Origin: Candidatus Binatia bacterium
GTDB lineage: Bacteria > Desulfobacterota > Binatia > UBA9968 > JAJDTQ01
Reading direction: 5' to 3'
NCBI GenBank assembly: GCA_963422385.1
Contig: OY729432.1
Coordinates: forward strand, 1,237,666 to 1,301,665
Length of the DNA stretch: 64,000 bases
Part shown: positions 9,134 through 34,456 of the stretch, piece by piece
Layout of the letters: every line of letters begins with the position of its first letter
Numbering within the stretch: the first letter of the stretch is position 1
Notes under the pieces: model-generated
The model's input: only the letters and a program-made list of their open reading frames with translations
Database searches by the model: none
What the model was told of the DNA's origin: nothing
Translations under genes and position numbers: made by a program

Positions 9134-9185
9134 AGCAGGACACCGGCATTTGGACGAGAGGCCATAGGGATCAGGAGGACAGGCA

Positions 9186-13116: not shown

Positions 13117-13177
13117 GCAGGGTTTCCAGGCTCCGTTTTCGTGGTCCGAACGGAAATGTCGGCAATGTGAGGTCAGG

Positions 13178-13998
13178 CTATGCGCCGTTTTCGACCAAGA
13201 GGTTGACCAACTTCGGATAGCGTCTCGCGATATCGGGATGACGGAGCAACCGGCTTTCCAGGTCGCGCTTTTCCCACCATTGGACCAGGAAATCTGTCAG
13301 TCTTCGCAGGTCTTCAAGATGATCGACGAGGGGAGCGGTGACGCGAGGATGCGCGATCAGCAGGAACCCCTTGGCATCGTGCCGCTCAAGGGTATCTCGT
13401 ATATCCTGCACATCGCCCTTCCCGACAGTGCGCCCGCGCGTTTGACCTAGGCCAGGATGCGTATGCGTTGCTTCTGGCGGTTGCCACGCGCAAAGTGGGG
13501 CCTCGGAATCGTCCAGTCGATCAGGATATCCCTGCTGCTGTCCCGGTCGTTGACACCGCCAACCGGCTTGGCGCGCGAAACGCCTGGTTCCCGGCGGAGA
13601 AGATCGACGAACAAATTCTCGAAGTTCCCCGCATCGAGCGAGGAATACCAGTCGGTGCGGGAATCGGCGAAGAAAACTTGATCCTCGGCCGTGCGCCGTT
13701 TCAAGAACCGCTTGCGCTCGGCATCGTAGACTTCCCGCCCACAATTCTCGCGGATGGCTATTAGCGTCTTATCGCCGAGAAAGATACAATGACTGTCGAT
13801 CGGAAGAAGCAGAGGCCTATCGCAGGGGCCGCCGGTCTTGTCCATGAGACGTTCGGCGAGCTTGATTGTCTTGAAAGGAACGACGTTAGTGATTCCATTC
13901 GCGAAGACCGCGAGCGCATGTTCGCCCGGTACGATGCTCCGGCGGTTCGTGCGTATTCGAACCGTACGGTAAGAATGGCGGGCTGTAGAGCATTTCAC
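13178..13998 (-). CDS. hypothetical protein, apparently frameshifted or split (two overlapping frames)
   Basis: Frame A 13447..13998 (...NFENLFVDLLRREPGVSRAKPVGGVNDRDSSRDILIDWTIP...) and frame B from about 13423 down to 13178 (GKGDVQDIRDTLERHDAKGFLLIAHPRVTAPLVDHLEDLRRLTDFLVQWW...) both look protein-like. They join only via a frameshift around 13424-13447. Lower GC. Confidence 0.38.
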
Positions 13999-14150
13999 TT
14001 TCGCCTGCGAGAATCGATCTGGTTACGTCCGCCAGTAGTATATCGGGCTCCGTTTCACGACCGATCCGGTGCCTGTCGTGCGTCACCGCCTTCCCCGGAA
14101 ACCGCTGTTGTGAATGCATGGAGTCCAATATACACCATAGCGTTGGAGAA

Positions 14151-14165
14151 ACACCAAAATGGTGT
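14151..14165. promoter_or_regulatory. perfect palindrome ACACCAAAATGGTGT (with extra ACACCA/TGGTGG half-sites nearby) upstream of the six-gene operon; candidate operator
   Basis: ACACCA at 14133-14138, ACACCAaaaTGGTGT at 14151-14165, TGGTGG at 14171-14176. A sigma70-like TTGCCA-18-CACAAT lies at 14197-14226. About 215 bp upstream of ATG 14380. Confidence 0.35.
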
Positions 14166-14379
14166 AAAATTGGTGGCCGTTTCAAGGAGTTAGGAATTGC
14201 CACAGCCAAAGTCGGAGAGGCACAATGTTGGCCTGTCCGAAGTCGACCTTCTGTGGCGTGATTGATCCGACGGACCATGTCGGAATTCGTGGCGTGGCAC
14301 CGCCACGGCCTCGCTCAGGATCTGCCGCTACGACGCCTCGAACCGGATTCGCGCGGCAGCAAGAAGGCGGGAGGATCGC

Positions 14380-16554: not shown

Positions 16555-16571
16555 CGGCTGGAGGAAGAGAT

Positions 16572-16817
16572 ATGGCACTAAACGACAAAAAGATAATCTC
16601 GATCATCCTTGAGCAGTACTCGGGAATCGAGAAACGGTGCGAAGGCTACCGGGAACAGATTATCCAAGTGATTTCCGAAATTCTGGAATACGAACGAAGC
16701 CACAGGGTCTCCGCGACGAATATCCAGAAGAAGATCAACGACAAGTGCAACGCCACGGCGCGGTTCCTTGCGACGCAGCGCGGCCAAGACACCGGCACGG
16801 AGGAACTGGACTCATGA
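16572..16817 (+). CDS. small hypothetical protein (81 aa)
   Basis: Natural composition (MALNDKKIISIILEQYSGIEKRCEGYREQIIQVISEILEYERSHRV...). Its stop overlaps the next start (ATGA at 16814-16817), indicating translational coupling. Confidence 0.5.
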   Translation: MALNDKKIISIILEQYSGIEKRCEGYREQIIQVISEILEYERSHRVSATNIQKKINDKCNATARFLATQRGQDTGTEELDS

Positions 16818-18949: not shown

Positions 18950-18955
18950 GAGGCG

Positions 18956-19420
18956 ATGATGACGGATCGATATTTCAATCCGTTCCAGGCAATCGATATC
19001 AACGTGCCAGTCGAATTCCATGAGGCGTTCATACGGTACTGCCAGCGAAGCGCCAACGCGGTGATCGACCAGAGCCCGTTTCCGCGCATGGTCGATCTCT
19101 GGTTCCTGTCCGTATGCGTCGCGAGTCGGCTCGGGCTTGATCCCGCCGACATCGCGAAATTCGATACGCGCAAGATCATTGATGGGTCGATATTTGGCAG
19201 CGATCCATGGCGTGTTCACACGATCATGCTCATTGCGATTGGCACATTGGGCGATGTGCAGGTCGTCTCCGAACCCCGCAAAATGATGACGCTGGCTAAC
19301 GGCCTTGCCGTGGCCGGCCTTCCAAAAGTCATCGAAATGCTCAAGGACGGCGATGCGGAACCGATCTGGAACCTGTCGGACGCTGTTGACGCTCTCTTGC
19401 GCAAAGAGAGGACAGCGTAG
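18956..19420 (+). CDS. hypothetical protein (154 aa) coupled to the SMC-like ATPase
   Basis: ATG 7 bp after the ATPase stop, with GGAGG spanning that stop. Natural composition; no motif recognised. Confidence 0.55.
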   Translation: MMTDRYFNPFQAIDINVPVEFHEAFIRYCQRSANAVIDQSPFPRMVDLWFLSVCVASRLGLDPADIAKFDTRKIIDGSIFGSDPWRVHTIMLIAIGTLGDVQVVSEPRKMMTLANGLAVAGLPKVIEMLKDGDAEPIWNLSDAVDALLRKERTA

Positions 19421-19534
19421 GAGCCGGTGCATGTCGATATCGGTTTGTGGGAATGCCTGGCGAAAAGCCGAATTTGGTGGCAGCAGTTGGGCGGGCGTAA
19501 TTGGGAAGCCGCATAACAAACGGAGATAAACGGC

Positions 19535-21907
19535 TTGTTCAAGATTTGTGCCCGCACAGTTCTGGAGCTAGGCGCTGAACTTATCAGTTCCGATGTCATC
19601 GCGTTCTATGAACTGATCAAGAATGCATTCGATGCCGAGTCCCCGACGGGAGCCGAGATTCGTTTCGAGATCACCCTGAGACGGAACGATTACCTGAAAT
19701 TCCGCCATCGGGCGGTCGAAGGACTTGCAGATATAGAGCATCTGAAATCCGACATCGAGAAATCACTCGACCAGTCGGCGCCGAAGGACTCACTGAACCG
19801 TTTCCGCAACGCGATACAGGGTGCGGATAATCTGGAAGAGCTTGTTGGAGTTCTGGACGCGGCGCACGCTTCGGAGAACAGGATTATCGTGTCCGACGAG
19901 GGCACGGGGATGTCGCGACAGGATTTGATAGACAACTATCTCGTTATCGGCACGGCATCGCGCAAGCGCGCGATCAACGCGGCCCTTGCGGGACACCACG
20001 CGGGAGACCGGCGCGCCCCGTTCCTCGGCGAGAAAGGCATCGGTCGGCTGTCGGCGATGCGACTCGGCGACCGGCTGATGGTCGAAACGGCCGAGCGTCG
20101 CGACAAGCGGCTAAACCTGCTCAGGATCGACTGGTCGGTTTTCGAAGACCTCGACGCGATGCTGGACGAGATCCATGTCGCGCCCGAGCATGGCACGTCC
20201 AAGCCGGATGGGAACTGGAGCGGCACGAAGCTGATTATGACCGCGCTCACTGCGGACTGGACGCATGATCGCGTCAAGCATCTTGGCGAGCATGATATTG
20301 CGCGGCTGACCGACCCGTTTGCCGATGTGAAACGGCGTCCACGTATCGCGATCTTCTGGAACGGCACACGCATCCCGGTTGCTCATATGAATCGAAACCT
20401 GCTGTCGCACGCCCATGCGTCCGTCAAGGGCCGGTTCATATACAGAGAATCAGGACCGATGTTACAGTGCACTTTCGAGGCGCTCGATCTTGGGTTTGAG
20501 CATCCGCACGAAGTGGAGAAGAGAGAATTTGTGCGGGCCGACCTCGAGGGCTCGATCATCGGTACCTCCAGCGAAGTTCCGTTGTCCGCACTTGATGGTC
20601 TTGGACCGTTCGAGTTCGAGGTCTACTGGTTTAACCGGCAGCGCCTCGGTCGCATCGACAGCATCGGCGACCGAAAGATTGTCCGTGACCTGCAAAGGAG
20701 GTGGTCAGGAATCCTGCTGTTCCGCGACGGGTTTCGCGTACTTCCCTATGGGGAAGATGATGACGACTGGCTTGCTCTGGACCGGCGCGCTCTGGCCAGC
20801 ACCGGATATCTCTTGAACAAGACACAGTTCGTCGGACGAGCCACAATCTCCCGTCTTGGCAATCCGTTGCTGATTGACCAGACAAACCGTGAAGGCTTGC
20901 GGGTTTGCTCCGAACAGCAAGCGTTCGTCAGCTTGTTGCAGCTCGCTATCCAGTCTCAGCTTCGCGATTTCATCCGGGAAGTCGAGCGCCGTCACAAGAA
21001 CCAACCTCTTGACATGACCGAGGCAAAGACCGGTGTGTCGAACCTCGAAAAGAGAGCGAAGGCCGCCCTCCGCCAGATCAGGAAAATTGCACCACAGTCC
21101 TCCGAGACGATCGAGGAATTGCAGCACACCTTCTTCGAGATCAAGGAGTTCTTCGACCGGGCGCAGCGCCGAATCGACGAAGTGGAGAGCGAGAACCGAC
21201 AGATGGTGCAGATGGCGGGCGTGGGTCTCTTGGTCGAAGTTGTAGCGCATGAACTTGCGCGATCGACCGAGAATGCGCTGGCGGCTCTTGAGGCTCTGCG
21301 CGGCAGGGACCTACCGGAACAGATCGGCGGCCTGCTCAACGCCCTCAGATCGGAGATGACATCGGTCAGTAAACGCGTCCGCGTGCTCGACCCGCTGAGC
21401 GTATCAGGACGACAACGCAAGGAAAGCTTCGATTTCGGCGCGTTGATTGAGGACATACTGAGCGGGCACGAGCTTCAGTTCGAACGTCATGACGTAAAAC
21501 TCAAGGCCAGCTTGCCTGACAACACCGTCCGCATCCGCGCGGTGAAGGGCATGCTCGTGCAGATTTTCGAAAACCTCTTGTCCAACTCGCTATACTGGCT
21601 CGACCTCCGTAAACAGCATGAGCCAAACTTTCGGCCGCGGATTGCCATTGCGATGGAAGACGACCCTCTCACGATCATCTATGAGGACAATGGCCGCGGA
21701 ATTGCACAAGAGAATCGTGAAAGCGTCTTTCGTGCCTTCTTCTCTCTGAAGGAGAAGTCGAAGCGCCGGGGGCTTGGCTTGTATATCGCGCGCGAATGCG
21801 CAGAATATCATGGTGGCAGCTTGACGCTGGACAATCACGTCAATCGCCAGACGGGACGCCTTCACCGTTTTGTGCTGCGACTGCCGGACGAGGTTATGGT
21901 CTCGTGA
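19535..21907 (+). CDS. dual GHKL ATPase: N-terminal MORC/MutL-like domain plus C-terminal histidine-kinase-like (H-box plus HATPase_c) module
   Basis: 790 aa. N-terminal N-box ELIKNAFDA, G1 DEGTGM, G2 GEKGIGRLS. C-terminal VAHELARSTEN (H-box-like), N-box ENLLSNSLYW, G1 EDNGRGI, G2 GLGLYIAREC. A 115-bp gap upstream suggests a possible internal promoter. Confidence 0.78.
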   Translation: MFKICARTVLELGAELISSDVIAFYELIKNAFDAESPTGAEIRFEITLRRNDYLKFRHRAVEGLADIEHLKSDIEKSLDQSAPKDSLNRFRNAIQGADNLEELVGVLDAAHASENRIIVSDEGTGMSRQDLIDNYLVIGTASRKRAINAALAGHHAGDRRAPFLGEKGIGRLSAMRLGDRLMVETAERRDKRLNLLRIDWSVFEDLDAMLDEIHVAPEHGTSKPDGNWSGTKLIMTALTADWTHDRVKHLGEHDIARLTDPFADVKRRPRIAIFWNGTRIPVAHMNRNLLSHAHASVKGRFIYRESGPMLQCTFEALDLGFEHPHEVEKREFVRADLEGSIIGTSSEVPLSALDGLGPFEFEVYWFNRQRLGRIDSIGDRKIVRDLQRRWSGILLFRDGFRVLPYGEDDDDWLALDRRALASTGYLLNKTQFVGRATISRLGNPLLIDQTNREGLRVCSEQQAFVSLLQLAIQSQLRDFIREVERRHKNQPLDMTEAKTGVSNLEKRAKAALRQIRKIAPQSSETIEELQHTFFEIKEFFDRAQRRIDEVESENRQMVQMAGVGLLVEVVAHELARSTENALAALEALRGRDLPEQIGGLLNALRSEMTSVSKRVRVLDPLSVSGRQRKESFDFGALIEDILSGHELQFERHDVKLKASLPDNTVRIRAVKGMLVQIFENLLSNSLYWLDLRKQHEPNFRPRIAIAMEDDPLTIIYEDNGRGIAQENRESVFRAFFSLKEKSKRRGLGLYIARECAEYHGGSLTLDNHVNRQTGRLHRFVLRLPDEVMVS

Positions 21908-23814
21908 CGGAGCTGAAGGATCTTCTCGCAGCACGGGGAATCACACGCGCCCTCGTCATAGACGACGTGTTTGACTCCCTTCCACGTCCCGAGGAACTCA
22001 ATGACGGTGATTGGTCGAATTTCTTCGATGACCTCGGCGATGCCGGAAACGAACTGCTCAAGGAATTGTATAAAGGATATGAAGAAGCATCAGCCGAAGA
22101 GCTGAAGGCATCTCAGGATTTTATCACGGTAGTTTGGGAAAACCGTACGAAACTGCCGAACGCGGCCTGCGATCACCTGTTCCACGACTATGAGGAGACG
22201 AAGACTACGGAACGCGCGGGCCTCGATGTGCTCGTCGGCGCACTGGGAGCGCTGGGGCTGGCCTGCACAACGATGGGGCGCGAACTTAACGAGGGAGCGA
22301 AGCAAGCAGAGCTGATCTTTGTCGACTTGTTCTTGGGTTTCCATCAGTCCGAAGACGATATGGAACGAGCAGTCAGACGTGTCGGTGAACTGGTCGAAGG
22401 GCGTGTTCAGAACCCGCCGCTCGTCGTCCTCATGTCACGTAGTCCCCGGCTTCAGGAAAAACGAAACGAGTTTCGGGACACGGCGGGACTCTTAGGGTCC
22501 ACGTTTCGCGTCGTCAGCAAAGCTGACCTCGCCAGGGAAGGAACGCTGGAGACCCTGTTGACGCGGCTGGCGAATCACTACGAGGACGCAAAACGTGTTG
22601 CTGGCTTTGTCCATGCGTGGGACAGCGGCCTCGACCAGGCACGGCGGAATTTTGTCCGCATACTGCGCCGTCTGGATCTATCGGACCTTGCACAGGTGCG
22701 GGCGCTGCTGCTCGACTTCGAGGGGCAGCGCCTCGGTGAGTATCTTCTCGACGTTGCCGACCGGGTTTTGCAGCATGAGATAGAAGATGACGACAATACG
22801 ATTGCGGCGGCTCTGAAGCTGAACAAAATCGATTTGAGAAAATACCCAGCCCCGCATCTGGCCGGTTCTCCGGATTTGCAGGAACTCGTGCACCGCATGG
22901 TGTTTGTGCACCCTGATCGCCTGCGTCTTTCGGCGAACGAAAACAAGGTGCAATTGCAGTTTGGCGACGTGCTGCGTTGGAAGGCTGATGAGGGCGATGG
23001 CTACGGTGGTGCTGTTTCGCTGGTCGTGAGTCCGGCATGTGATCTTGTGCGCGACGGCGCCGAGCGCGTCATGCTGCTTTCGGGTACGCTCGAAGAGCTT
23101 CAGCCCAAGAATTGGTCTTACAGGGCCGGCCCGATCAGAACAGCCATTGTGATACTACCCGACGAGGGGCGGAAGTGGATCAGGTGGAACCTCAAGAATG
23201 TCAGAAGCCTGGAGTGGAACAAGCTGGACAAGTTGATCGGAGAGGACGTCAGTCTAAAGCGCATTGGCCGGCTCCGGGAAATCTACGCAATCGAAATCCA
23301 GCAAATGCTCCTGACGAACCTAGGCCGAATCGGCCAGCCCGCGAACCTGCCGGTCCCATTCCCGGTTGCCATTTCGTTGTTCTACGTAGGAATCGATTGC
23401 AAGGCGCGTAGACTTGCTGTCAACCATATCGACTCCGCTGCCTGCTACGTCGGGCGCGGCGAAAGGCCGCAACCGGTACACCGGCTGGTCCTGTCGGAGC
23501 AAACTTGCGATCACATAGAGCAGGCTTTGCAGGCGTTGGGCCAGGATGCCGTTCGGCAATCCGCCCAAGCCAGCCTTGCAGCCGTAAAGGCGGACCGCGA
23601 CTTCTTCACCAAGTTCGAGCGAGGCGAGATCGAGATGCCCACCGACGCAGGCACGAAGGTCATCAAGGCGGACAACAATAGGGTCTATGCCGCGATCATT
23701 CGAGGCGGAAAATTCGACGAAGGAAGTGATATCGTAGGCGAACCCCGGAAAGCGGCTTTGATCGTCAAAGTGACGGATATCGCCGGCCATGACGGGGACC
23801 AAAACGGTCCCTGA
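21904..23814 (+). CDS. hypothetical protein (636 aa), last gene of the operon; possibly a receiver-like N-terminus
   Basis: GTG start overlapping the preceding stop (GTGA). N-terminal ...RALVIDDVFD... and later ...LIFVDLFLG...PPLVVLMSRS... resemble a degenerate receiver domain (inference only). The remainder is unassigned. Confidence 0.6.
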   Translation: MTELKDLLAARGITRALVIDDVFDSLPRPEELNDGDWSNFFDDLGDAGNELLKELYKGYEEASAEELKASQDFITVVWENRTKLPNAACDHLFHDYEETKTTERAGLDVLVGALGALGLACTTMGRELNEGAKQAELIFVDLFLGFHQSEDDMERAVRRVGELVEGRVQNPPLVVLMSRSPRLQEKRNEFRDTAGLLGSTFRVVSKADLAREGTLETLLTRLANHYEDAKRVAGFVHAWDSGLDQARRNFVRILRRLDLSDLAQVRALLLDFEGQRLGEYLLDVADRVLQHEIEDDDNTIAAALKLNKIDLRKYPAPHLAGSPDLQELVHRMVFVHPDRLRLSANENKVQLQFGDVLRWKADEGDGYGGAVSLVVSPACDLVRDGAERVMLLSGTLEELQPKNWSYRAGPIRTAIVILPDEGRKWIRWNLKNVRSLEWNKLDKLIGEDVSLKRIGRLREIYAIEIQQMLLTNLGRIGQPANLPVPFPVAISLFYVGIDCKARRLAVNHIDSAACYVGRGERPQPVHRLVLSEQTCDHIEQALQALGQDAVRQSAQASLAAVKADRDFFTKFERGEIEMPTDAGTKVIKADNNRVYAAIIRGGKFDEGSDIVGEPRKAALIVKVTDIAGHDGDQNGP

Positions 23815-23817
23815 GAC

Positions 23818-24657
23818 CTACTTGTGGCAGGCAAGACAAACCTTTGCCTGCCCGTACAGGTCGTCAATGTCCAGCGGCTCGATATCCGGCCTTAAGGGGT
23901 TGGTCTGTACCTTCGAGCGCATCCGTGCAAGCCGTTGTTCATGATCCTGCCTGATCTGTTCGACGCGATCCGGCCGTTCCAGATCTTCAAGCGACTCCCC
24001 CTGACTCCAGGTAAAAGGCGAGCCGTGCTCGACGGCGTTCTTCTCGTATGCCTTGGCCTCTTCGAACGCCTCAGGGTGCTGCTCTTTGAGCCGTACCCAT
24101 TCAATCTTTTGCTGGAAGAAGCAGAAGGTGCAGCCGCTACGCGTGCGCCAGGAATAGTATTTGGGTAGACCGAGCCCAGCCCCATCGAGAATCTCAAGGA
24201 CCCCTGCCTTGTCGATCCCCGCCTGCTTGAACGGCAAGTTGATGACCAGGTTGTCGTGCTTGGAAGAATAGCCTTCGCGGTATTCCTCATCGCTGCGGAT
24301 CGCGACGTAACTATGGACCGTCGTCCCATCGACCAGCAGCGGGCGAAGCCAGTGCTCGAACGGACGGAGTTTTAGCTGCCGCGTGCACCAGCGCGTCTGT
24401 GGCGAAGGAAGGAAATCATTGTATTGCTTGAGCCAGAAGTCGAAGTCGCGGTCCGGGTTCAGTTTGCGTATCGGTTGACCGAGAAATCCCTCCAGCAGCC
24501 CGAGATATTCGTAAACCTCGGGCAGTTCCTTGCCCGTATCCGTAAAAAAGTATTCGATTTCGAGTTCGGGGTGACGCTGTCGCATGTAAACGGCGAGCGC
24601 CGCGCTGTCGCGCCCGCCGGATAGGCCAAGTACGTGTTTCACAGGACCGGTCGTCAA
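23818..24657 (-). CDS. sspD: SspD/DndC-like PAPS-reductase-family ATP pyrophosphatase (phosphorothioation)
   Basis: 279 aa with PP-loop LSGGRDS and conserved Cys cluster (CTFC...). TTG start overlaps the sspC stop. Small size fits SspD rather than the roughly 500-aa DndC. Confidence 0.8.
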   Translation of the reverse strand: MTTGPVKHVLGLSGGRDSAALAVYMRQRHPELEIEYFFTDTGKELPEVYEYLGLLEGFLGQPIRKLNPDRDFDFWLKQYNDFLPSPQTRWCTRQLKLRPFEHWLRPLLVDGTTVHSYVAIRSDEEYREGYSSKHDNLVINLPFKQAGIDKAGVLEILDGAGLGLPKYYSWRTRSGCTFCFFQQKIEWVRLKEQHPEAFEEAKAYEKNAVEHGSPFTWSQGESLEDLERPDRVEQIRQDHEQRLARMRSKVQTNPLRPDIEPLDIDDLYGQAKVCLACHK

Positions 24658-27600
24658 GAAGCGGCCTTTTCTTTCCCATTTTTTTGTGCAGGCGGATAAT
24701 TTTGCATGTAGCGCGTGCTGAGTTCCGCCAGCGCCGCCAGAATGATGCTCCGGCGGCTAGTGTCGGCGGCCTCCAACGAGGCGGCAACACGCTCGATGAG
24801 ATCATTGACGGCAACACGGTCGGCGTCGGCGATGTCGAATTCCTCGAGCAGCGGCACCGGCCGGCCGTCCATACCGATGATGACGGCCATGGCCTGTCGC
24901 TTGTCGGGGCGGCCCTGAACGCGCGCATACGTCTCGGCCCGGAGGAATTTCTGCGCCATGTCGGCAAGCTCGATTGCCGCATGGTCTATATCGGGATCGA
25001 CCCATTCACGCGGCGACTTGTTCGCGGCAAGACTCGCGATCCCTTCGAAACTCTCGTCCGAACCGTCGAACTGCGCCAGTCGGCCGACGAAGGCGTCGAG
25101 CCGGAAATCTCCGGCAAGCCGCCTGATATTCTCGGCGCGCTTGCGCAATTCCACCAGGGACTGCGGAGAGACGTTAGGAACCTGCATCTCCTCCAGCATG
25201 ATATCGCGCAGGCGGTGAAGCATCGACGGATAGGCCATTACCAGTTCTTCCAGGCCTTCGCGGACGCTTACGACGACACGGCGCAAACCGTCTTCGTCTT
25301 CATTGGCAAGCGAAACGTCTTCGCCAAGCGTTTCCGGTATGTCGTCGAACAGGAACCGGTTGGGATCGTGCGCCCGTTTGAACAGATCGCGAATTTTTAC
25401 AGCATTGGATGACAGCCGCATCGTCAGCCCGGTCCATTTGGGAAGCCGGTCGTAGATCCCGACAAGGCCGCGCCCGACATCGATGGGCTCCAGGTGAACA
25501 AGCTCGTTCGCGTCGTCGAGATCGCGGACTACCTGCGCCATACCCGACAACAAGCGGCGTGCAACATCGGTCAGATCCATCCAGCGCAACTGGATGAAGG
25601 TCGGGTCCTTGGCAAGATACTCCACGTCCACGTCGTCGAACTTGGTCCTAAATATGCCATTCCGGTAGACCGCCAGTTTTTTGTGCTGGGACAGAACGAA
25701 TGCTACGGCAAGGATCGGCATGAGACCGTCCTTCACGCCAAAGGGCATCTCGCGCCATAGTTCGAACAGCTCGGATACCGCGACGGTGCGCGAGGAGCGT
25801 TCCTTCACATGGTCGAGCGCGGCAGTCCACAGCGGGGCCAGGTGGCAAGGATCTGCACCATTCGTCGGGGCAACGAATCGCCACCCCTTGCCTTCCCGGG
25901 CATAGAGCCCAGTCGCTTCCAGGACGGATTCGAACAGCCCACCCTCGGCCGGGTACCCTTGGATACCAAGGCGAGCTTCGCCCTCGTTCAGGACCATGCG
26001 GCGCAACAGGGCGTTCTGTGCCGCGATGGCATTGCTTGACGGTTTCTGCCGACTCAGCAATTCGTTATGCAGCCGCGGCGACTTCGCGAAGCGGCGGTCT
26101 GCTAGCTCGGAGGCGATGCCGTTCAGATCGGCCTGCCGCAGGCGTTTGGGCAGGTAGTTTTTCCGGAACCACAGCGCATTGTCGAATGCCTTGTGCAGTT
26201 CGGTTTCAAGCAGGGCCTGCAAGGCCGCAAGGCGAGCGGAGACTTCCCGCCGCGCAACGAAATCGCCCGCGAGTTCCGGATGATCATTGCTGACACTATC
26301 GAGCGCAAACAGCTCCCGCGCTAGGGGCACAACTACCCATGACTTTTTCGAAATCCCGACGACGACGTCCCATGCATCGCTATACCGCGCGGCTTTGCGG
26401 CACAGGTCCTCGGCACAGGCCTCGCTCTCTCCCTCGGTCGGAATCGCCAGCAGGAATTGTCCTATAGCGCCGTTCTCCGGCCCAAGCCTCGTGGCGAATT
26501 CGACGAGGCCACTGATCGGCACGACGTATACGTCGAACCATCTCAGCGCGCCGGTGTCATGATAGTGGCGCTTGGCGAGGATCGGCTGAAGTCCCGCGAC
26601 GGATTTCAACTCGGTGAAATCCACCTCGTCAATCTCGTCGAGCGCGGCCCGCACCGCTCTATCAATATCGAAATCGCTCCCTGCGAAGATGGCGCGTGCG
26701 TCGAGGAATTTCTTGAAGATCGTGAACGACCATGTGTCCAGTTGCGAGAGCACTTTTTCAAGCGCCTTGTCCGATGTACCGTGGAAACAGGTGCGCAGCA
26801 GGTCAAAATTTGCCACGAGGCCCGAGCGTTCCTTGAACAGGTCAATGACGGCGATTGTCTTGAGTAACCCGACATGAAGGGAGTCGCCGCCAATGGATTC
26901 GCATCGTTCGATCGCTTCCGCTGCCAAGGCCCACCGATGTCCGTCCGGCGAAGCGAGGATGGACGGTTCCAGGTTGGCGCGAAGATAGTCCCAAAGCCGG
27001 TCGGGGCCGTACAGTTCGCCGTCCCCGTCATGGTTCAGATAGTCCTGAAATCCGTGCGGTTCGGAGGAATTCAGGAAACCGAATATGCTGCGCTGATTTT
27101 GCCCGAATCGCCGCCGCGATATCGGTCCAAGCAAACAAGCGACAACGGGATGCAGTGGCCAGCATGCTTCCAGCATTGCGGCGAGCCGTGCAACGTCACC
27201 AGCGCGTTCCCGACGTGCGAAACCGGCGACGGCGGACGCGAGCGGGCCGGGCTTCTTTGGACGATAATCACTCTCGATGGCGCGTGAGATCAGGTCGATT
27301 TGCTCTTCAACCGCAGTGTTGACAACGAGGTCGATGAAACGCCCCTGAACTTTCGCCCACTCGTCGCGCATTTCGTGCGAGAGGCGATGGGCGTATTCCT
27401 CGAACGCTTGGTGCAACACGCCGATGACAAGAAAACGCCCCTTGCTTCGCGACGCGGCTTCAGCAAGCTGCTGGAGGATGTAGATGTCGGAGCCGTCCCG
27501 CGCGGCGGCCTCCAGAAACTTGCCCATCTCGTCGATGACCAGGACTAGCCCGCCGTGCGTCTTCGGCCTGGATGCAGCCGCCTCGGTCAGGGTGTCGATC

Positions 27601-28049
27601 AGATTGCTTTCAGTCCAGCCGTCGCGTGGCTGCCGTGCCACGAGTCCTGTTCGCTTCACAGCCTCGCCGATGACCGCGACGGGGTCGTCGCGACGCGCGA
27701 CGACGGGAAGGATGCGCCATCCCTTCGTGCCTGTCGGTAACGCGGTCCAGATCGTTTTCGCCAGATTCTGTCCGAAGACCCCGGCGGCCTCCTTCTGCAA
27801 ACCGGCCTTGCCCCTCAGCAAGGCGCTCAGGGCCACGACGAGGCTCGATTTGCCGCTGCCGTAGGGACCTGTCCATGTGAATGCGCCTTGGCCCGTTTCG
27901 GAGACGTGGCGCGCCATCGTTGCCAGAACATCGGCGGATGACTGCGGACAAATGAATCCTTCAAGGGCGGCGGCGTCACCGAGATCGGCATCAATGCGGA
28001 TCGATCTGAGAAAACGGCGGGCGATCCAGACACGTTCGTTGAGCACCAT
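24654..28049 (-). CDS. sspC: SspC-like large P-loop ATPase (DUF499/BrxC-like)
   Basis: 1131 aa with N-terminal Walker A TGPYGSGKSSL and Walker B LVLVIDEMGKF. ATG 28049 is preceded by GAGGAGG and overlaps the sspB stop (ATGA). Confidence 0.75.
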   Translation of the reverse strand: MVLNERVWIARRFLRSIRIDADLGDAAALEGFICPQSSADVLATMARHVSETGQGAFTWTGPYGSGKSSLVVALSALLRGKAGLQKEAAGVFGQNLAKTIWTALPTGTKGWRILPVVARRDDPVAVIGEAVKRTGLVARQPRDGWTESNLIDTLTEAAASRPKTHGGLVLVIDEMGKFLEAAARDGSDIYILQQLAEAASRSKGRFLVIGVLHQAFEEYAHRLSHEMRDEWAKVQGRFIDLVVNTAVEEQIDLISRAIESDYRPKKPGPLASAVAGFARRERAGDVARLAAMLEACWPLHPVVACLLGPISRRRFGQNQRSIFGFLNSSEPHGFQDYLNHDGDGELYGPDRLWDYLRANLEPSILASPDGHRWALAAEAIERCESIGGDSLHVGLLKTIAVIDLFKERSGLVANFDLLRTCFHGTSDKALEKVLSQLDTWSFTIFKKFLDARAIFAGSDFDIDRAVRAALDEIDEVDFTELKSVAGLQPILAKRHYHDTGALRWFDVYVVPISGLVEFATRLGPENGAIGQFLLAIPTEGESEACAEDLCRKAARYSDAWDVVVGISKKSWVVVPLARELFALDSVSNDHPELAGDFVARREVSARLAALQALLETELHKAFDNALWFRKNYLPKRLRQADLNGIASELADRRFAKSPRLHNELLSRQKPSSNAIAAQNALLRRMVLNEGEARLGIQGYPAEGGLFESVLEATGLYAREGKGWRFVAPTNGADPCHLAPLWTAALDHVKERSSRTVAVSELFELWREMPFGVKDGLMPILAVAFVLSQHKKLAVYRNGIFRTKFDDVDVEYLAKDPTFIQLRWMDLTDVARRLLSGMAQVVRDLDDANELVHLEPIDVGRGLVGIYDRLPKWTGLTMRLSSNAVKIRDLFKRAHDPNRFLFDDIPETLGEDVSLANEDEDGLRRVVVSVREGLEELVMAYPSMLHRLRDIMLEEMQVPNVSPQSLVELRKRAENIRRLAGDFRLDAFVGRLAQFDGSDESFEGIASLAANKSPREWVDPDIDHAAIELADMAQKFLRAETYARVQGRPDKRQAMAVIIGMDGRPVPLLEEFDIADADRVAVNDLIERVAASLEAADTSRRSIILAALAELSTRYMQNYPPAQKNGKEKAAS

Positions 28050-29005
28050 CACGCATCCTCCTCAGCGGGCCCGCCGTAATCGCCTCGAATCCACAACAAG
28101 GCTGCCTCTTTACTGATTTCGACGTTGCGCTCAACATGCTTTACCCCGGCGGTTTCGGTCCAGCGGAGCGCGCCGCCCGTCACGTCTTCGAGCGTCGCCA
28201 AGCGGTCAGCCACATCGTTCTCATCGAAAAGGAACACGCGGCCAGGCCCGCCGGGCGCATGGGCGATGGCCTCGAACGAGAGCGTGGCGACATTCGGAGC
28301 GTAGCGCGACCAGAAGTCGATCAGCGCATAGGTAAAAACAGCATCGCCCAATGTCGTCTTGGGACCTCGCACAAAGCGGAAGCCGTCCTTCCTGCCGATG
28401 GCCTTGATCAGCCCGAGTTCCGTGAGAGGCGACTCAAGCGCGTCGTCGTGCCCGGTCTTGCCGGACAGTTGCCGCGCGACATAGGTGCGAATGAAACATG
28501 CGACGTCATTTCTTATCGTCGTGTTAGCGGGCTGAGGCCAATTACGGTCCTTGGCAAGACGGTCGAGCCTCTTGATTAGCCCGTCCCGCTCGAAGGTGAC
28601 GGCGGGATAGTGGCTGAACGCCCAGAACCACGTCGTCTTCTCCTCGCGGGCCGCCAACTGCCAATGGATCAGCCACAGCGTGGTGGGGTGCTCCATATAC
28701 GGATCAAGGCCTTTCGGGCCGAACAAGAGATCACCGAGTTCCGTCGTTTGAACGGAAGTCGTTTCCGGCTCGGAGATTATTCCGCTGGCTTTCGCCCAAT
28801 GGCGCATCGACGTGACCATGTTCTTGCCGACGCCGAATCGCGCGATGGCGTCTTTGTCCCAACAGGCGGCCCTGTTGCCGGGTCGGTCTTGGGTTTCAGC
28901 GACGCGGTCGTACACCTTCTTCAGCCACCCGTAGCGCAACGGGAAGGTATCGTGGCCTGAGAATTGCGGGATGTAGTCTGTTTGATATAAAGGACCGTGT
29001 GACAT
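28049..29005 (-). CDS. sspB: SspB-like protein (DUF4007-type; proposed nickase of Ssp systems)
   Basis: Start set at ATG 29005 (GAGGGGAG immediately upstream), giving MSHGPLYQTDYIPQFSGHDTFPLRYGWLKK... (318 aa). Position between sspA and sspC, size and N-terminal motif fit SspB; the family call needs HMM confirmation. Confidence 0.68.
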   Translation of the reverse strand: MSHGPLYQTDYIPQFSGHDTFPLRYGWLKKVYDRVAETQDRPGNRAACWDKDAIARFGVGKNMVTSMRHWAKASGIISEPETTSVQTTELGDLLFGPKGLDPYMEHPTTLWLIHWQLAAREEKTTWFWAFSHYPAVTFERDGLIKRLDRLAKDRNWPQPANTTIRNDVACFIRTYVARQLSGKTGHDDALESPLTELGLIKAIGRKDGFRFVRGPKTTLGDAVFTYALIDFWSRYAPNVATLSFEAIAHAPGGPGRVFLFDENDVADRLATLEDVTGGALRWTETAGVKHVERNVEISKEAALLWIRGDYGGPAEEDA

Positions 29006-29159
29006 GCTCCCCTCGGTCACTGGATGATGCCTCCAGTTCGACTGTAGCCGACGAGTCATGCTATGGTCAACAGATACTTGGATGGTGCACCTAGAAGCAC
29101 ACGGTCGCCGGAACCCCGGCAATCAACAAGCCTTTGTGGTTCTAACTCATTGAAGCACA

Positions 29160-30347
29160 ATGAAAATTAGAAACACGATCTACCTTGATCATCAGGCGAC
29201 GACCCCGGTCGATCCGCGTGTTTTGGCCGAAATGACGCCCTATTTCAGCGACTCGTTCGGTAATCCGCACTCGTCGGATCATTGCCTCGGGTGGGAATCT
29301 TCACGCGCCGTCGAGGTCGCCGCCGCGCGAGTCGCACACCTGATCGGCGCGGACGCAAACGAAATCACCTTCACGTCCGGCGCAACCGAGTCGAACAATT
29401 TTGCCCTGCTCGGCCTCGGACACTACGCGGCGTGCGGCAAGCGCCGCCGAATTCTGCTGAGCGCCATCGAGCATAAATGCGTGTTGGCGGTGGGAAGAGT
29501 CCTGGACGAGCGCTACGGGTTCGTCGTCGAGTCGATCCCCGTCGATTGCGAAGGTTTCGTGAAGCTGTCGGCTCTCGAAGCAAAGCTAGACGAAAGTGTT
29601 CTTGCCGTGTCGGTCATGGCAGTGAACAACGAGATCGGAACCATACAGGACATCGAGAGAATCTCGCAGCTCGTAAGAGACTGCGGCGCCCTATTCCATT
29701 GCGATGCGGCGCAAGCGCCTGTTGCAATGAACGTCGAAGGAATTGGAAGGCATGCTGATGTCCTCAGTCTCTCGTCGCACAAGATGTACGGGCCGAAAGG
29801 GATCGGCGTCGTCTATATCGCGCGCGGGTTGCAAGACAGGTTCGAACCCCTGATCTACGGCGGCGGCCAACAGAACGGTTTACGCTCAGGCACCGTGCCC
29901 GTTCCGCTCTGCGTTGGCATGGGGGCTGCAGCAGGTTTACTGGTTGGCGACACCGCCGAGGAAAGGCGCGCGAACCTGAGCCGTCGGCGCGACATGTTCG
30001 TCGAAAAACTGAAGGGCCTGACGTGGCCGGTGGCTGTAAATGGCCCTGGAAATCGCGACCGGCATCCGGGCAACGCGAATGTGCGATTCGCGGGTTTTGC
30101 CGCGCATGACACCTTGAACACGCTTCAACCGCGACTCGCAGCCTCAACGGGTTCTGCTTGCACCTCCGGTATCCCGGAGCCTTCACACGTCTTAAGGGCA
30201 ATTGGTCTAAACACTGACGATGCCGAGTCTTCTATCCGTTTCAGCCTCGGCTTCAGTACAAGTGATGAAGACGTTGAAGAGGCTGTGGGCCTGATTGACG
30301 AGACGTTGGCGAAATTGTCGAAGACCAAGCCGGTGTGCTCAGCCTGA
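29160..30347 (+). CDS. sspA: cysteine desulfurase (IscS/NifS class V; SspA/DndA-like)
   Basis: 395 aa with PLP-lysine motif SSHKMYGPKG and active-site Cys in STGSACTSG. Divergent from sspB across a 154-bp intergenic region. Confidence 0.88.
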   Translation: MKIRNTIYLDHQATTPVDPRVLAEMTPYFSDSFGNPHSSDHCLGWESSRAVEVAAARVAHLIGADANEITFTSGATESNNFALLGLGHYAACGKRRRILLSAIEHKCVLAVGRVLDERYGFVVESIPVDCEGFVKLSALEAKLDESVLAVSVMAVNNEIGTIQDIERISQLVRDCGALFHCDAAQAPVAMNVEGIGRHADVLSLSSHKMYGPKGIGVVYIARGLQDRFEPLIYGGGQQNGLRSGTVPVPLCVGMGAAAGLLVGDTAEERRANLSRRRDMFVEKLKGLTWPVAVNGPGNRDRHPGNANVRFAGFAAHDTLNTLQPRLAASTGSACTSGIPEPSHVLRAIGLNTDDAESSIRFSLGFSTSDEDVEEAVGLIDETLAKLSKTKPVCSA

Positions 30348-30679
30348 CTTGACTATTGAAATGCCTCGAACGGATGCAGCCCACCGGGCCGGCTCGGACG
30401 GCTGCCCAAGGCATGTTCGTTGCATGGCTAGGAAGGGCGGCACCGCATCCGTCCTGGATTGCCACGCCACGTGCCACAGCGTCTCGCCGATTTTCGGTGC
30501 CGAACCCGGATAGTGATGGGCCTGCATCAGGCGTCGATAACGCCCTTCCTCCCAGCCGCCACCGGCTCGACCACCACCTCGCGCAAATTCAAAGGAGTCC
30601 CCTCGCTCCATCCTGTAATCTCCGCCTTTCTACTCCTTTCCTCCCCGAAAGTTCATACCTGACCCTAACTCCGTGTCCT

Positions 30680-30853
30680 CTAACTCTTTTTGGAAGGGAC
30701 AAATCCTACATTGGTCGTAAGGGGTAAAACCTGAACCCTGTTCAAGTAAGATAGAGCCAAATCGTTGGTCACGACGACCGCCGGCCTCTGTTTACGGATT
30801 TCTCCGCCAACAGACGGCCCGAACCTTACCCACCAGGCTTCACCCCGCTTCAT
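30680..30853 (-). pseudogene. MazF/PemK-family toxin, C-terminally truncated
   Basis: MKRGEAWWVRFGPSVGGEIRKQRPAVVVTNDLALSYLNRVQVLPLTTNVGFVPSKKS* covers only about half of a 110-aa PemK. No MazF-like continuation is found in the other frames downstream. Confidence 0.55.
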
Positions 30854-31070
30854 CCCTGATGTCCTCGGCCGTCCCCTCCATCCACTCCGTCGCCTCGGCT
30901 TCTCGTTGGGTATCTGCCGCCATCCGACGGTAACCCTCCTGAATATCGCCATATATGACGTAAGGCCTGACCAGGGACTCGATGAATCGACTGATCTTGC
31001 GTCTGCCTACGACCTGATAGAGACCTGCGTACACACTTTCATCCAGGGTGATTGTCAGCTTCTTTTGCAT
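30840..31070 (-). CDS. type II antitoxin (RHH/MazE-like), cognate of the truncated toxin
   Basis: MQKKLTITLDESVYAGLYQVVGRRKISRFIESLVRPYV...; AGGAG 5 nt upstream of ATG 31070; overlaps the toxin start by 14 nt. Confidence 0.6.
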   Translation of the reverse strand: MQKKLTITLDESVYAGLYQVVGRRKISRFIESLVRPYVIYGDIQEGYRRMAADTQREAEATEWMEGTAEDIRDEAG

Positions 31071-31160
31071 GGCGACTCCTAATACGTATATTACGCGAAT
31101 AGTACACGTATGTACCGTCATGACCGAAGAGACGCAATACGGCCGGCCTCTGTCACTGAA

Positions 31161-32054
31161 CTAACCGCGCGACTGGAAGAGAAAGAAGACGCCGGCCACC
31201 ACCAGGACGGCAGCCAGACCGTCCTTGACGGTTACGGTCTCGTCTTCTCTCAGGATCAACCGCGCCAGCGAGAAAGTGATCAGCGGTTGAACGTTCCAGA
31301 TGGGGGCGACGATGATGGCCGGGGCGTAGCTCACCGCGAGATAGGTCAGGATCGAGCCCACGCCCTGAAAGAATCCCGACAGGAGGAGAAAGAAGTAGCT
31401 GTCCCCGGAGATCCGGATGCCTTCCCGCCAGTCGATGCGCAGGACCCTGCCGAACAGCATGACGAGCGTGAGTCCCGTGACGTGGGTCACCAGCGATCCC
31501 GGAACGGGCGTGCCGCCGGCAAGGATCGCCACCTTCTTGAGGATTGGCCCGAAGCCGAAGAACACGATGGACAGGAGCGGGTTGAGGAACGCCTTGTAGC
31601 TCACGGGCCGTCCGGTGACCTTATCGTCGGGGGTCTTGCGGGTAATGAGCAGCAGCCCGGTCACGATCAGGACGACGCCGATGACGATGAGCGGGGTCGC
31701 GGTCTCCCCCAACAGGATGATGGCATAGACGGCGGTCAGCAGCGGCGCGGAGTTGGCGATGGACTGGGCCTTGGAGGCGCCGAGCTCGTCGATGCCCTTG
31801 AGCACGAAGGTGCGGCCGAGGAAACTTCCCACCAGACCCACGGAAACGAAGCCCCCGGCCGCGGTCCAGGGCATGCGGAGATGTACATCGCTGAACGGAA
31901 GAACCATGATCAGCACAAGGATGAGCACCGAGCCCACCTGTTGCAGCAGCACCGCGGCGCTGACGTTGGAGTGCCTGAGGCCGCGCTTGACCAGGACTGG
32001 AGAGGTTCCCCAGAATAGCGCGGCCGCCAGCGCGTAGGCGACGCCGGTGTCCAT
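31161..32054 (-). CDS. DMT-superfamily (EamA-like) transporter
   Basis: 297 aa from ATG 32054, about 10 TM helices and two EamA-like repeats. The upstream extension of the 481-aa ORF is GC-junk. Confidence 0.78.
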   Translation of the reverse strand: MDTGVAYALAAALFWGTSPVLVKRGLRHSNVSAAVLLQQVGSVLILVLIMVLPFSDVHLRMPWTAAGGFVSVGLVGSFLGRTFVLKGIDELGASKAQSIANSAPLLTAVYAIILLGETATPLIVIGVVLIVTGLLLITRKTPDDKVTGRPVSYKAFLNPLLSIVFFGFGPILKKVAILAGGTPVPGSLVTHVTGLTLVMLFGRVLRIDWREGIRISGDSYFFLLLSGFFQGVGSILTYLAVSYAPAIIVAPIWNVQPLITFSLARLILREDETVTVKDGLAAVLVVAGVFFLFQSRG

Positions 32055-32056
32055 CC

Positions 32057-32653
32057 CTAGGGGATAGCACCGCCCGGAGCGGGCCGGAAGTAACGCGAGG
32101 CACCCCGACCCTTTTTGTTGTCGGTGACCTGTGAAGACATGTAGGGCGGGTTTCTGACCCGCCCGCGCTCGGGCGCCGCCTCGGCCAGGTAGAACGGCGG
32201 AAGACCGCCGAACCGGAATCGGTGATCGAGTCCGCGGGCTCCGAACTCCTGCTCGTCCTGCCTCAACATCGGCGTCAACCACGGATCCCGCTTGCGGTCG
32301 GTGAGGGTGTCGCGGAATCTTCGAGACGCCCCCAGGGACGATGAGCCCGTGGCGATGACCTTCGCTTTCGGGTGGTAGTCTGCGGCGATCTTCAAGACCT
32401 CCGACGGATTGGGCAGGCGATGGACCTCGTTCAACACCACCCTCTTGGGCCCCAGGTCCTGGAAAAAGCCTTCGGGATCGGCCAGTCTGCGGCGCGTGCT
32501 CGGCAACTCGCAATCGAGATACTCGACATCCGGCAGGGATTGGCAGAGAACCGTCTTGCCCGCTCTGCGGACACCCGCGAGCCAGACCACGGACTTCGTT
32601 ATCCAAAGGTCCTCAATGGCTTTTATCCAATGACTTCGTTGAACCATATGCAA
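32057..32653 (-). pseudogene. AAA-family ATPase (AAA_14/DUF4143-type) N-terminal fragment, truncated
   Basis: Walker A WLAGVRRAGKTVL and Walker B-like ...RVVLNEVH..., but protein-like sequence ends after about 150 aa and the tail is GC-junk running into the transporter start. Full-length members are about 390 aa. Confidence 0.5.
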
Positions 32654-32835
32654 AATATGATTGCGTTTAGTGCTACTACATGAAGTTTATTGGCGTTTGG
32701 TACACGAGTCGCATCACCTCCGACCGACCAGGCGCCCGTCCGAGTAGTCGAATCGGCTTGAAACCCTCCTCCGACATGTCATGGTTAAGGGATCGGGATT
32801 CGATGCAGCACGGTTCCTTGCGAAAGGAGACGGTA

Positions 32836-33480
<645 letters not shown>

Positions 33481-33541
33481 ATCCGGGGCCTCCGCCACCG
33501 GACAGCCAAGGCTGTTATGCCCGCGTTGCCGGGTGGGGGCA

Positions 33542-34456
33542 ATGGGTGCTAATGTCCTGTCCCCTATGCTCTACGACTATGTCGCCTTTCCCGACCGCCC
33601 GCCGTTACATTGGCCCCACGGCGCGCGGGTGGCGCTGATCTTCACCATCAACATCGAATACTGGGAGATGACCCGCGACGGCGCGGAGCCCCTCTACCCC
33701 GGCGGTCCGGCGACGATTCCGCACGTGCTCCCGGGCAACGTCCCCGATTACGCCAACTGGACCTGGCGCGAGTACGGGCAGCGCGTCGGAGTCTGGCGCA
33801 TCATCGACGTGTTCGACAAGGCCGGCGTGCCCGCCACCTGCACCATGAACGCGCTCACCGGCATCGAGCGACGCCGCATCATCGACGCCGCCAACGAGCG
33901 CGGCTGGGAGATCCTGGCCCACAACTACGCCCAGAACGACGTGCTGACCTACTACGCGCACCAGCCCGACAAGGAGCGCGAGGTCATCCGCCGCACCCTG
34001 GACGCCTACGCCGAGGCGGTGGGACGGCCGGCCCGGGGCTGGCTGTCGTCGTCGCTCAGGAGCACCCACGAGACCCCACACATCCTGAAGGAGCTGGGGC
34101 TGCTGTTCCAGGCGGACTATCTGAACGACGATCAGCCCTACCTGCTCGACACCCGCCACGGGCCGCTGGTGTGCATCCCCTACTCCAACGACGTCAACGA
34201 CTTCGCGGTCTTCTCCCGCGGCGGCCGCACCACCTCCCAGGCGATGGAGCTGTTCAAGGAGCAGTTCGACCAGCTCTATCTGGAAGGAGCCACGAGCGGC
34301 CGCATCATGAACGTGGGCATGCACCCCCACGTCATGGGGCAGGCCTACGCCATCCGCGCCCTGCGCGACTTCGTTGACTACGTCAAAACCTTCGACGGGG
34401 TATGGTATCCCAAGCGCGAGGAGATGGCCGAGTGGTACCTGGAGAGCAGGGCATAG
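33542..34456 (+). CDS. polysaccharide deacetylase-family protein (PuuE/allantoinase-like)
   Basis: NodB-type deacetylase pattern (TINIEYWE..., ...LAHNYAQND..., ...MNVGMHPHVMGQ). Start ambiguous among GTG 33533, ATG 33542 and ATG 33566. Confidence 0.78.
   Translation: MGANVLSPMLYDYVAFPDRPPLHWPHGARVALIFTINIEYWEMTRDGAEPLYPGGPATIPHVLPGNVPDYANWTWREYGQRVGVWRIIDVFDKAGVPATCTMNALTGIERRRIIDAANERGWEILAHNYAQNDVLTYYAHQPDKEREVIRRTLDAYAEAVGRPARGWLSSSLRSTHETPHILKELGLLFQADYLNDDQPYLLDTRHGPLVCIPYSNDVNDFAVFSRGGRTTSQAMELFKEQFDQLYLEGATSGRIMNVGMHPHVMGQAYAIRALRDFVDYVKTFDGVWYPKREEMAEWYLESRA

Follow-up and report, generated by a model that had tools for sequence, protein, structure and literature searches.

We have analysed a stretch of 64,000 nucleotides from a Candidatus Binatia bacterium (contig OY729432.1 of assembly GCA_963422385.1, positions 1,237,666 to 1,301,665), referred to here as the window, with regard to a set of genes at positions 23818-30347 that a preliminary description had read as a phosphorothioate (PT) DNA-modification module of the SspABCD type. 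Four intact genes lie in this segment: the minus strand carries sspD, sspC and sspB, and the plus strand carries sspA, divergent from the other three. The listing of open reading frames (ORFs) confirmed the positions originally given for all four, and these are collected in Table 1 together with those of the neighbouring genes discussed later.

Identification of the four Ssp proteins

We compared the predicted products with protein family profiles from PADLOC (Ssp, Dnd, BREX and Pbe systems), Pfam, NCBIfam and PHROG, and with known structures through PDB sequence searches and Foldseek. Each of the four proteins matched its Ssp-specific PADLOC profile over the full length and with scores well outside the range of chance, which bears out the earlier reading of the locus as SspABCD rather than DndABCDE. 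SspD scored 452.6 bits over profile positions 1-277 of 277 (BrxP, 30.8 bits; DndC, at most 18.6), SspC 1332.8 bits over 1-1044 of 1045 (next best, BrxC, 355.6), SspB 355 bits over 2-280 of 282 with no rival profile, and SspA 410.9 bits over 1-373 of 374, with DndA close behind at 400.8. SspB, which lies between sspA and sspC as had been described, also matched Pfam DUF4007 (E 2.7e-86; 289.7 bits, cut-off 27), a check that had been proposed for it, and the solved SspB structures 6JUF and 6LB9 (E 9.8e-34 in the PDB sequence search). SspA matched Pfam Aminotran_5 (E 2.6e-75); its best NCBIfam match was IscS, and it fell under the equivalog cut-offs both of IscS (366 vs 643) and of DndA (346 vs 480). 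The claim that SspD is a small PP-loop protein, not a DndC of about 500 amino acids (aa), also held: against the NCBIfam DndC profile TIGR03183 it scored 16.4 bits, where the cut-off is 290.4. Similarly, the reported absence of DndB agreed with our finding of no DndB-like match in the window. PDB sequence searches returned no relative of SspC and a single relative of SspD, a chain named 'PptA' (21fy_C, E 1.4e-7); a literature search linking PptA to phosphorothioate or phosphorothioation found nothing relevant.

The sequence motifs of three of the proteins were examined among homologues (73 for SspA, 78 for SspC and 79 for SspD). The pyridoxal phosphate (PLP) lysine and active-site cysteine that the preliminary description had seen in the cysteine desulfurase are K208, in SSHK, and the catalytic C334, in GSACTSG, and both are invariant (73/73). 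In SspD, the PP-loop SGGRDS at residues 13-18 and five cysteines, C91, C176, C179, C274 and C277, are likewise invariant (79/79), and the Walker A (GPYGSGKS, with K67) and Walker B (D173/E174) residues of SspC are kept in 73-74 of the 78 homologues. This conservation indicates that the ssp genes of the window are intact and constrained as those of a functional system would be.

The sspB, sspC and sspD genes form a tightly packed operon with overlapping stop and start codons. Two overlaps of 4 bp, ATGA and TTGA, had been described here. The second is present, where the sspC stop codon meets the TTG start of sspD; the first is absent, since the sspB/sspC junction reads GTGATG, in the context GCGTGATGG. 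At this junction the overlap is 4 bp (GTGA) if sspC begins at its GTG and 1 bp if it begins at the ATG, and the ATG, which yields the 1131-aa product, is better spaced than the GTG from the Shine-Dalgarno sequence GAGGAGGA. In the longest ORF of sspB, the first residue covered by the DUF4007 and SspB profiles is 53-54, and homologues are mostly 316-345 aa in length, so that the true start is probably M40 at 29005, which would give a protein of 318 aa and leave a gap of 154 bp between the divergent genes. On either strand this gap contains a single weak match of the sigma-70 type, scoring 9/12 in each case (2 vs 0.5 expected), and these are consensus matches only.

Table 1. Positions of the ssp genes and of neighbouring genes in the window
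Feature	Position	Strand	Description
pbeA	14380-16554	+	HKD (PLD-type) nuclease fused to superfamily 2 (SF2) helicase, 724 aa; PADLOC PbeA 635.4 bits
pbeB candidate	16572-16817	+	81 aa, by position; no family match
pbeC	16814-18949	+	711-aa CxC-type ABC ATPase, related to DndD; start at M60 of 770-aa ORF
pbeD	18956-19420	+	154 aa, directly after pbeC; assigned by position only
kinase	19535-21907	+	790 aa; N-terminal MORC/HSP90-type GHKL ATPase, C-terminal histidine-kinase core
receiver protein	21904-23814	+	636 aa; receiver-like N-terminus and MazF-fold domain; no family match
sspD	23818-24657	-	279 aa from TTG start; small PP-loop (SGGRDS) ATP pyrophosphatase resembling 3'-phosphoadenosine 5'-phosphosulfate (PAPS) reductase
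sspC	24654-28049	-	1131-aa BrxC-like P-loop ATPase; alternative GTG start at 28052 gives 1132 aa
sspB	28049-29005	-	DUF4007 protein, probably 318 aa from M40; longest ORF to 29122, 357 aa
sspB/sspA intergenic region	29006-29159		154 bp, between divergent genes
sspA	29160-30347	+	class V PLP cysteine desulfurase, 395 aa

Distribution of the module and its chromosomal setting

A scan with SspD, taking one genome per species, gave 553 relatives, of which we kept the best 80 loci; all counts out of 80 given below refer to these best 80, not to the whole set. Across them SspD is 78-91% identical to that of the window. Hosts were found among Terriglobia, Binatia, Gamma- and Alphaproteobacteria, Rhodothermales, Planctomycetota, Dehalococcoidia and further groups, and many are marine or sponge-associated metagenome-assembled genomes (MAGs). 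The layout with sspA divergent from sspB-sspC-sspD, with full-length matches, was found in about 72 of the 80, and the order sspB-sspC-sspD is repeated in at least 70 related loci. At four loci (L025, L026, L036 and L072) we observed one to four small genes, encoding 150-290 aa and belonging to clusters c19, c32 and c57, between sspC and sspD, so that the usual overlap is broken.

The GC content is 57-61% across the locus, as against 63-69% beyond about 5 kb and about 33 kb of the window, where the outer genes are of housekeeping type (molybdopterin oxidoreductase, ABC-F ATPase, carboxylase, ZnuA and aminotransferase). Flanking segments at 10177-12207 and 31161-33703 are 79-91% identical in nucleotide sequence to a locus in an uncultured Candidatus Binatia MAG, L002, and another Binatia MAG, L006, shares 87.6% nucleotide identity with the window in a collinear match that covers 14399-30354. 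A scan of the window detected no tRNA gene and hence no tRNA-linked integration site, and a search for att-like direct repeats around the island (11500-31500) gave short, imperfect pairs of the kind expected by chance.

The neighbouring pbeABCD genes

Six plus-strand genes, comprising pbeABCD followed by the genes for a kinase and for a receiver protein, converge on sspD. Homologues of SspE, SspF, SspG and SspH were not found in the window by tblastn with proteins from related loci, nor did the neighbouring ORFs match the PADLOC SspE-H profiles. PbeA was above threshold for Pfam ResIII, DEAD and Helicase_C and below it for PLDc_2, and its HxK, GSxN and helicase I and II motifs are conserved. 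The pbeB candidate is preceded by its own Shine-Dalgarno sequence, GGAGGAAGAG, and its stop codon overlaps the pbeC ATG as ATGA; a gene of 80 aa occupies the same position in L081, a locus from a betaproteobacterial MAG. A simple ORF listing hides this small gene inside the 770-aa ORF of pbeC. PbeC scored 171.9 bits with PADLOC PbeC and 96.8 with DndD, and 92 bits with NCBIfam DndD (cut-off 246); its CxC (zinc hook) motif, C353-I-C355, is kept in 28/29. The pbeD position is filled by a conserved protein cluster of 20 loci, and the window's gene has the size expected for pbeD. The window's pbeD product had no Pfam, PADLOC or PHROG match and matched neither DndE nor any other profile at E<=1, and the pbeB candidate and the receiver protein were likewise without a PHROG match. 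The roles that we give to the Pbe parts, including the CxC ABC ATPase, follow published work in which PbeD is called a DndE cognate (PMC10853773).

Pbe genes adjoin sspD in 28-29 of the 80 loci. These Ssp-linked sets fall into at least three divergent groups, in which PbeA shares 74-87%, about 50% or about 37% identity with the window's PbeA, and occur in both orientations. No published account of a pairing of Pbe with SspABCD was found in the literature searched.

The kinase and receiver protein genes

Between pbeD and sspD lie the two genes of the kinase/receiver pair, which are translationally coupled. The kinase matched Pfam HATPase_c_3 (5.4e-13) and HATPase_c (1.9e-19), both above threshold, and, over residues 515-784, the histidine kinase LvrB in the PDB (1.3e-13). 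Three members of the kinase family gave matches to HEF_HK that were below threshold (15.3, 21.5 and 13.1 bits; cut-off 24.1) and stood at the same position, which is residues 563-622 in the window kinase; for this reason the kinase appears to be a distant relative of proteins with the HATPase_c_3, HEF_HK and HATPase_c arrangement. H572 of its H-box, N719, G746 and G748 show no variation (38/38) among homologues, of which the most distant has 37% identity. PADLOC assigned neither gene of the pair to a defence system, and gave one weak REase_II match on the kinase.

The GTG start of the receiver protein gene overlaps the kinase stop codon as GTGA, and its own stop codon is 3 bp from that of sspD. 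The receiver protein has at least 486 homologues, and among those listed none has a functional name or a Pfam domain. Its residues D20, D21, D141 and S178 are invariant (38/38) and K206 nearly so (37/38), down to 22% identity. In a structural model (predicted local distance difference test score, pLDDT, 77.5) these five residues lie at the tips of consecutive strands in an alpha/beta domain of five strands, a placement that, on the model, resembles the receiver-domain pattern, the likeness being one of pattern and fold only. We modelled residues 345-636 separately (pLDDT 79.6), and the top 8 PDB matches to this model were all MazF toxins (E 6.6e-4 to 2e-2, probability 1.0, TM-score 0.56-0.65), the next match having E 0.2. 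Conserved residues of this part include G354/D355 and C379/D380. A PDB sequence search with the 672-aa ORF (U672) whose stop codon is the one lying 3 bp from that of sspD gave no match, nor did three members of the receiver family match Response_reg_2 (PF19192) at E<=10.

To follow this gene outside the Ssp sample, we used loci that had been fetched with the receiver protein alone, without selection for Ssp genes (n=47, comprising 43 from metagenomes and 4 contigs; 22-77% identity). A kinase homologue is directly upstream of the receiver gene in 47/47. Homologues of sspBCD or sspFGH are adjacent in 38 of the 47, and the other nine all have less than 2.5 kb of flank; that is, adjacency was observed in every locus with enough flank (38/38). 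Divergent lineages, whose Ssp proteins are 25-49% identical to those of the window, have the five genes on one strand, arranged as sspB-sspC-sspD-kinase-receiver. Three lineages have an sspFGH-like set instead, and there the pair is immediately next to sspH: in two of them it comes after sspF-sspG-sspH on the same strand, and in the third it is beside sspG-sspH on the opposite strand. The locus L081 (1-21908) has pbeABCD, the kinase and receiver genes, sspDCB and sspA between an integrase and helix-turn-helix (HTH) gene on one side and an AlpA/Toprim-DUF3987 primase on the other. In this context the ten genes seem to move together on an integrative element, which suggests that the set as found in L081 is mobile. 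We found no published link of Ssp with a histidine kinase, a MORC protein or a two-component pair in the literature searched, and such a link may still exist in print.

The variable position after sspD

The ORFs of the 80 loci were clustered and the cluster representatives scanned, in order to survey the position that follows sspD. Apart from the Pbe genes, it is occupied by an SF2 helicase, HATPase_c_3 protein and PLD nuclease trio in 20/80 loci, by a DndB-like gene, usually with a small gene upstream of it, in 14, by the kinase/receiver pair in 10, by sspE in 8 and by sspFGH in 7-8. The Pbe-bearing loci usually have the order sspD, variable cassette, pbeD-C-B-A, with sspE as the cassette in 6 loci and the kinase/receiver pair in another 6. 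A direct comparison is offered by L002, which has sspE, at its positions 10842-13145, exactly where the window has the pair (19380-23818). The two sequences cease to be homologous at 19380, close to the 3' end of pbeD, and homology restarts at the sspD stop codon, 23818; from its borders, the difference looks like a clean cassette swap.

Interpretation and proposed mechanism

That the four ssp genes are what they were taken to be, that they are intact and conserved in organisation, that a complete pbeABCD set (pbeB and pbeD by position) adjoins them and that the kinase/receiver pair is strictly linked to Ssp genes are direct observations, and we regard it as probable that the region is a complete SspABCD PT-modification module on a low-GC chromosomal island. 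By analogy with characterised systems (PMC8092258, PMC10853773), SspA would draw sulfur from cysteine and carry it as a persulfide on C334, and SspD would use ATP at its PP-loop, together with the conserved cysteines, to insert the sulfur into a DNA phosphate. SspB, as a DUF4007 protein with multiple winged HTH elements, would recognise the target and nick one strand, and SspC, as a BrxC-like ATPase, would drive ATP-dependent scanning. The product would be a single-strand PT mark; the PT motif in the known Ssp systems of Vibrio, E. coli and Streptomyces is 5'-CpsCA-3' (PMC8092258, PMC10853773).

The mark would probably be read by the neighbouring genes and not by SspE or SspFGH, the candidate readers being pbeABCD and the kinase/receiver pair. 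Given its linkage to Ssp genes, we take the pair to be a candidate partner of Ssp. In the simplest model, the paraMORC domain of the kinase would sense the state of the DNA, the kinase would phosphorylate D141 of the receiver protein, and this would switch the MazF-fold domain. We propose, tentatively and with some doubt, that the pair represents an undescribed class of dedicated Ssp partner, alongside SspE and SspFGH, which couples PT state to a toxin-like effector by His-Asp phosphotransfer. A functional coupling of the pair to the PT mark is in itself a possibility that we rate somewhat short of evenly balanced, and the main alternative to it is co-transfer in a defence island.

A number of observations weigh against the interpretation given above. 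For the Ssp proteins, the match of SspD to Pfam PAPS_reduct, 23.4 bits, is barely over the cut-off of 22.5, and SspC had no match to Pfam DUF499 (PF04465) even at E<=10. The preliminary description had called SspC 'DUF499-like', a label that is wrong or at best loose, and had counted a failure to match DUF499 as grounds for giving up the assignment. We judged that condition too narrow, since the dedicated SspC profile matches end to end; judged by its sequence, the missing match is a labelling problem and the SspC assignment stands. The weak Pfam matches of SspC were AAA_16, nSTAND1 and DUF6079, all below threshold, and there was also a weak BrxC match, which agrees with the description of SspC in the literature as a homologue of BrxC (PMC12839542). 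For the receiver protein, alignment with CheY (hhalign) was not significant (probability 0.1), there is no Pfam Response_reg or Response_reg_2 domain, a Foldseek search of the PDB with the full-length model gave nothing at E<=0.001, and the likeness of its C-terminal part to MazF, at 12-17% identity, is at the level of fold only. The role of Pbe as a PT-dependent restriction module has been questioned (PMC10853773). More generally, gene linkage in defence islands may mean co-transfer and not joint function, and the related loci are phylogenetically non-independent samples. The host, finally, is uncultured, and we infer the PT chemistry, its motif and any functional coupling to the neighbours.

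Alternative explanations

If SspABCD were a real but orphan module, serving an epigenetic or redox role alone, pbeABCD and the kinase/receiver pair would be independent defence systems that happened to be transferred with it. True orphans have been proposed among sspBCD clusters (PMC8092258), Pbe/CxC systems are also found without PT genes (PMC10853773), the position after sspD holds many unrelated cassettes, and the setting of the ten genes of L081, between an integrase and AlpA/primase genes, makes co-transfer plausible. We consider this explanation unlikely, however: the pair adjoins Ssp genes in all 38 informative loci over the range of 22-77% identity, including loci with sspBCD, kinase and receiver on one strand; it stands in the place of sspE in the syntenic L002; and the stop codons of the receiver gene (U672) and of sspD are 3 bp apart. 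A different arrangement of the same parts would be a hybrid Dnd-like machine, in which SspA and SspD, as counterparts of DndA and DndC, act with PbeC and PbeD, as relatives of DndD and DndE, to produce double-strand PT, as in archaeal DndCDEA-PbeABCD. PbeC does score on the DndD profiles (92 bits in NCBIfam, 96.8 in PADLOC), PbeD has been called a DndE cognate, and mixing and matching of such modules has been described (PMC10853773). Yet PbeC bears the CxC motif of a separate clade, SspD is no DndC (16.4 bits vs a cut-off of 290), and SspB and SspC are intact, overlap their neighbours and are kept with SspD in nearly all loci, including about 50 without Pbe; a hybrid in which PbeC and PbeD take the place of SspB and SspC is therefore highly improbable. 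A Dnd identity for the module itself was rejected, since SspD is not DndC and DndB is absent from the window.

Two further explanations concern the families to which the Ssp proteins belong, and to each we give a negligible likelihood. The homology of the components to the BrxC, PAPS reductase and DUF4007 parts of BREX type 4 (PMC12839542), which appears here in the scores of SspC on BrxC (355.6 bits) and of SspD on BrxP (30.8), would allow a BREX type 4-like PT system. The Ssp profiles score 4-15 times above the BREX ones, however, PAPS reductase and DUF4007 are here separate, unfused genes, and no PglZ or BrxL domain was found in the ORFs scanned, those between 14 and 32 kb of the window; on the last of these grounds, and on the far higher Ssp scores, a BREX type 4 identity was rejected. 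Ordinary sulfur metabolism, with an assimilatory PAPS reductase and IscS unrelated to DNA, is what the Pfam names PAPS_reduct and Aminotran_5 and the best NCBIfam match of SspA would bring to mind. Against it, SspA stays far short of the score required for an IscS equivalog (366 vs 643), the genes keep the conserved Ssp order in company with those for DUF4007 and an 1131-aa ATPase, and they are located on a low-GC island beside nuclease and helicase genes.

Comparison with known systems

The SspABCD module proposed here has the same four families, sspBCD operon, adjacent cysteine desulfurase and small PP-loop SspD as the characterised systems of Vibrio cyclitrophicus FF75, E. coli 3234/A and Streptomyces (Xiong et al. 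2020; PMC8092258). It differs from them in that the window is without an sspE or sspFGH partner, and the window's SspB aligns with the Streptomyces SspB structure over part of its length only (E 1e-33). With DndABCDE it shares a cysteine desulfurase, SspA being nearly equal on the DndA and SspA profiles (400.8 vs 410.9), and a PP-loop sulfurtransferase; in contrast to DndABCDE, its SspD is of 279 aa, DndE and DndD are replaced by SspB and SspC, and the window lacks DndB. BREX type 4 (BrxC, PAPS reductase, DUF4007, PglZ and BrxL; PMC12839542, PMC12914056) has a homologous ATPase, PAPS reductase and DUF4007, but in the window these components are separate and PglZ and BrxL are missing from the ORFs scanned.

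Among the neighbours, the window's pbeABCD has the same four parts (an HKD-SF2 helicase, a small protein, a CxC ABC ATPase and a small protein in the DndE position) in the same order as the PbeABCD, or CxC ABC-ATPase/DndE, system (Xiong et al. 2019; PMC10853773), from which it differs in being paired, here and in the 28-29 loci mentioned above, with SspABCD instead of DndCDEA. The kinase may be compared with those of HATPase_c_3, HEF_HK and HATPase_c composition that, with Response_reg_2 partners, have been linked to type II restriction-modification (Bellieny-Rabelo et al. 2021, PMC8011034). The window kinase appears to have the same three-part architecture, with HEF_HK below threshold, and is likewise followed by a receiver-like protein for which no other domain is known, in a DNA-modification context. 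Its partner, however, is of 636 aa with a MazF fold and no Response_reg_2, and is linked to Ssp PT genes rather than to C5 methyltransferases.

Taken alone, the Ssp module is of modest interest, as one more member, in a barely studied (Binatia-like) lineage, of a system known since 2020. Its value lies in the context, which offers concrete, cloneable candidates for how PT marks are read, and of these the window carries two. It has been reported that 84% of 2,678 sspBCD clusters are without both sspE and sspFGH, and other partners have been suggested (PMC8092258); if the proposal made here is true, the pair and pbeABCD would explain part of these clusters without a known restriction partner, and the pair would tie modification of the DNA backbone to a phosphorelay of the two-component type and to a MazF-like domain.

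Additional observations

The low-GC stretch reaches to the left of the Ssp and Pbe genes (window positions 5000-14000). An ORF at 6348-7172 in this part matches a profile for type II methyltransferases over a portion only (46-186 of 331), and PADLOC PDC-S05 matches were obtained for an ORF of 234 aa at 12412-13116; the segment 12207-14140 is missing from the syntenic L002.

Several of the other genes found near Ssp modules may be noted. The trio, which is the second commonest neighbour of sspD (for example, at 11107-15520 of L004, and in 19 other loci), encodes an SF2 helicase together with a paraMORC-like HATPase_c_3 protein (about 625 aa) and a nuclease of the PLD type (about 313 aa); its PADLOC matches were weak only (MzaB, DrmC and PbeA), and it may be another uncharacterised Ssp partner. 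The DndB-family protein found after sspD in 14 loci (for example, at 1017-2800 of L016) is of about 420 aa (Pfam DndB, 5e-26), and its gene is usually preceded by one of about 120-190 aa; DndB is normally a component of Dnd, not of Ssp. An 810-aa protein with a weak HATPase_c_3 match is a recurrent Ssp neighbour in 5/80 loci (at 12170-14602 of L038, and also in L083, L101 and L114). Finally, a protein of 700-900 aa with a sigma-70 region 4 HTH is encoded upstream of pbeA in 5 loci, as seen at 10801-12900 of L027.

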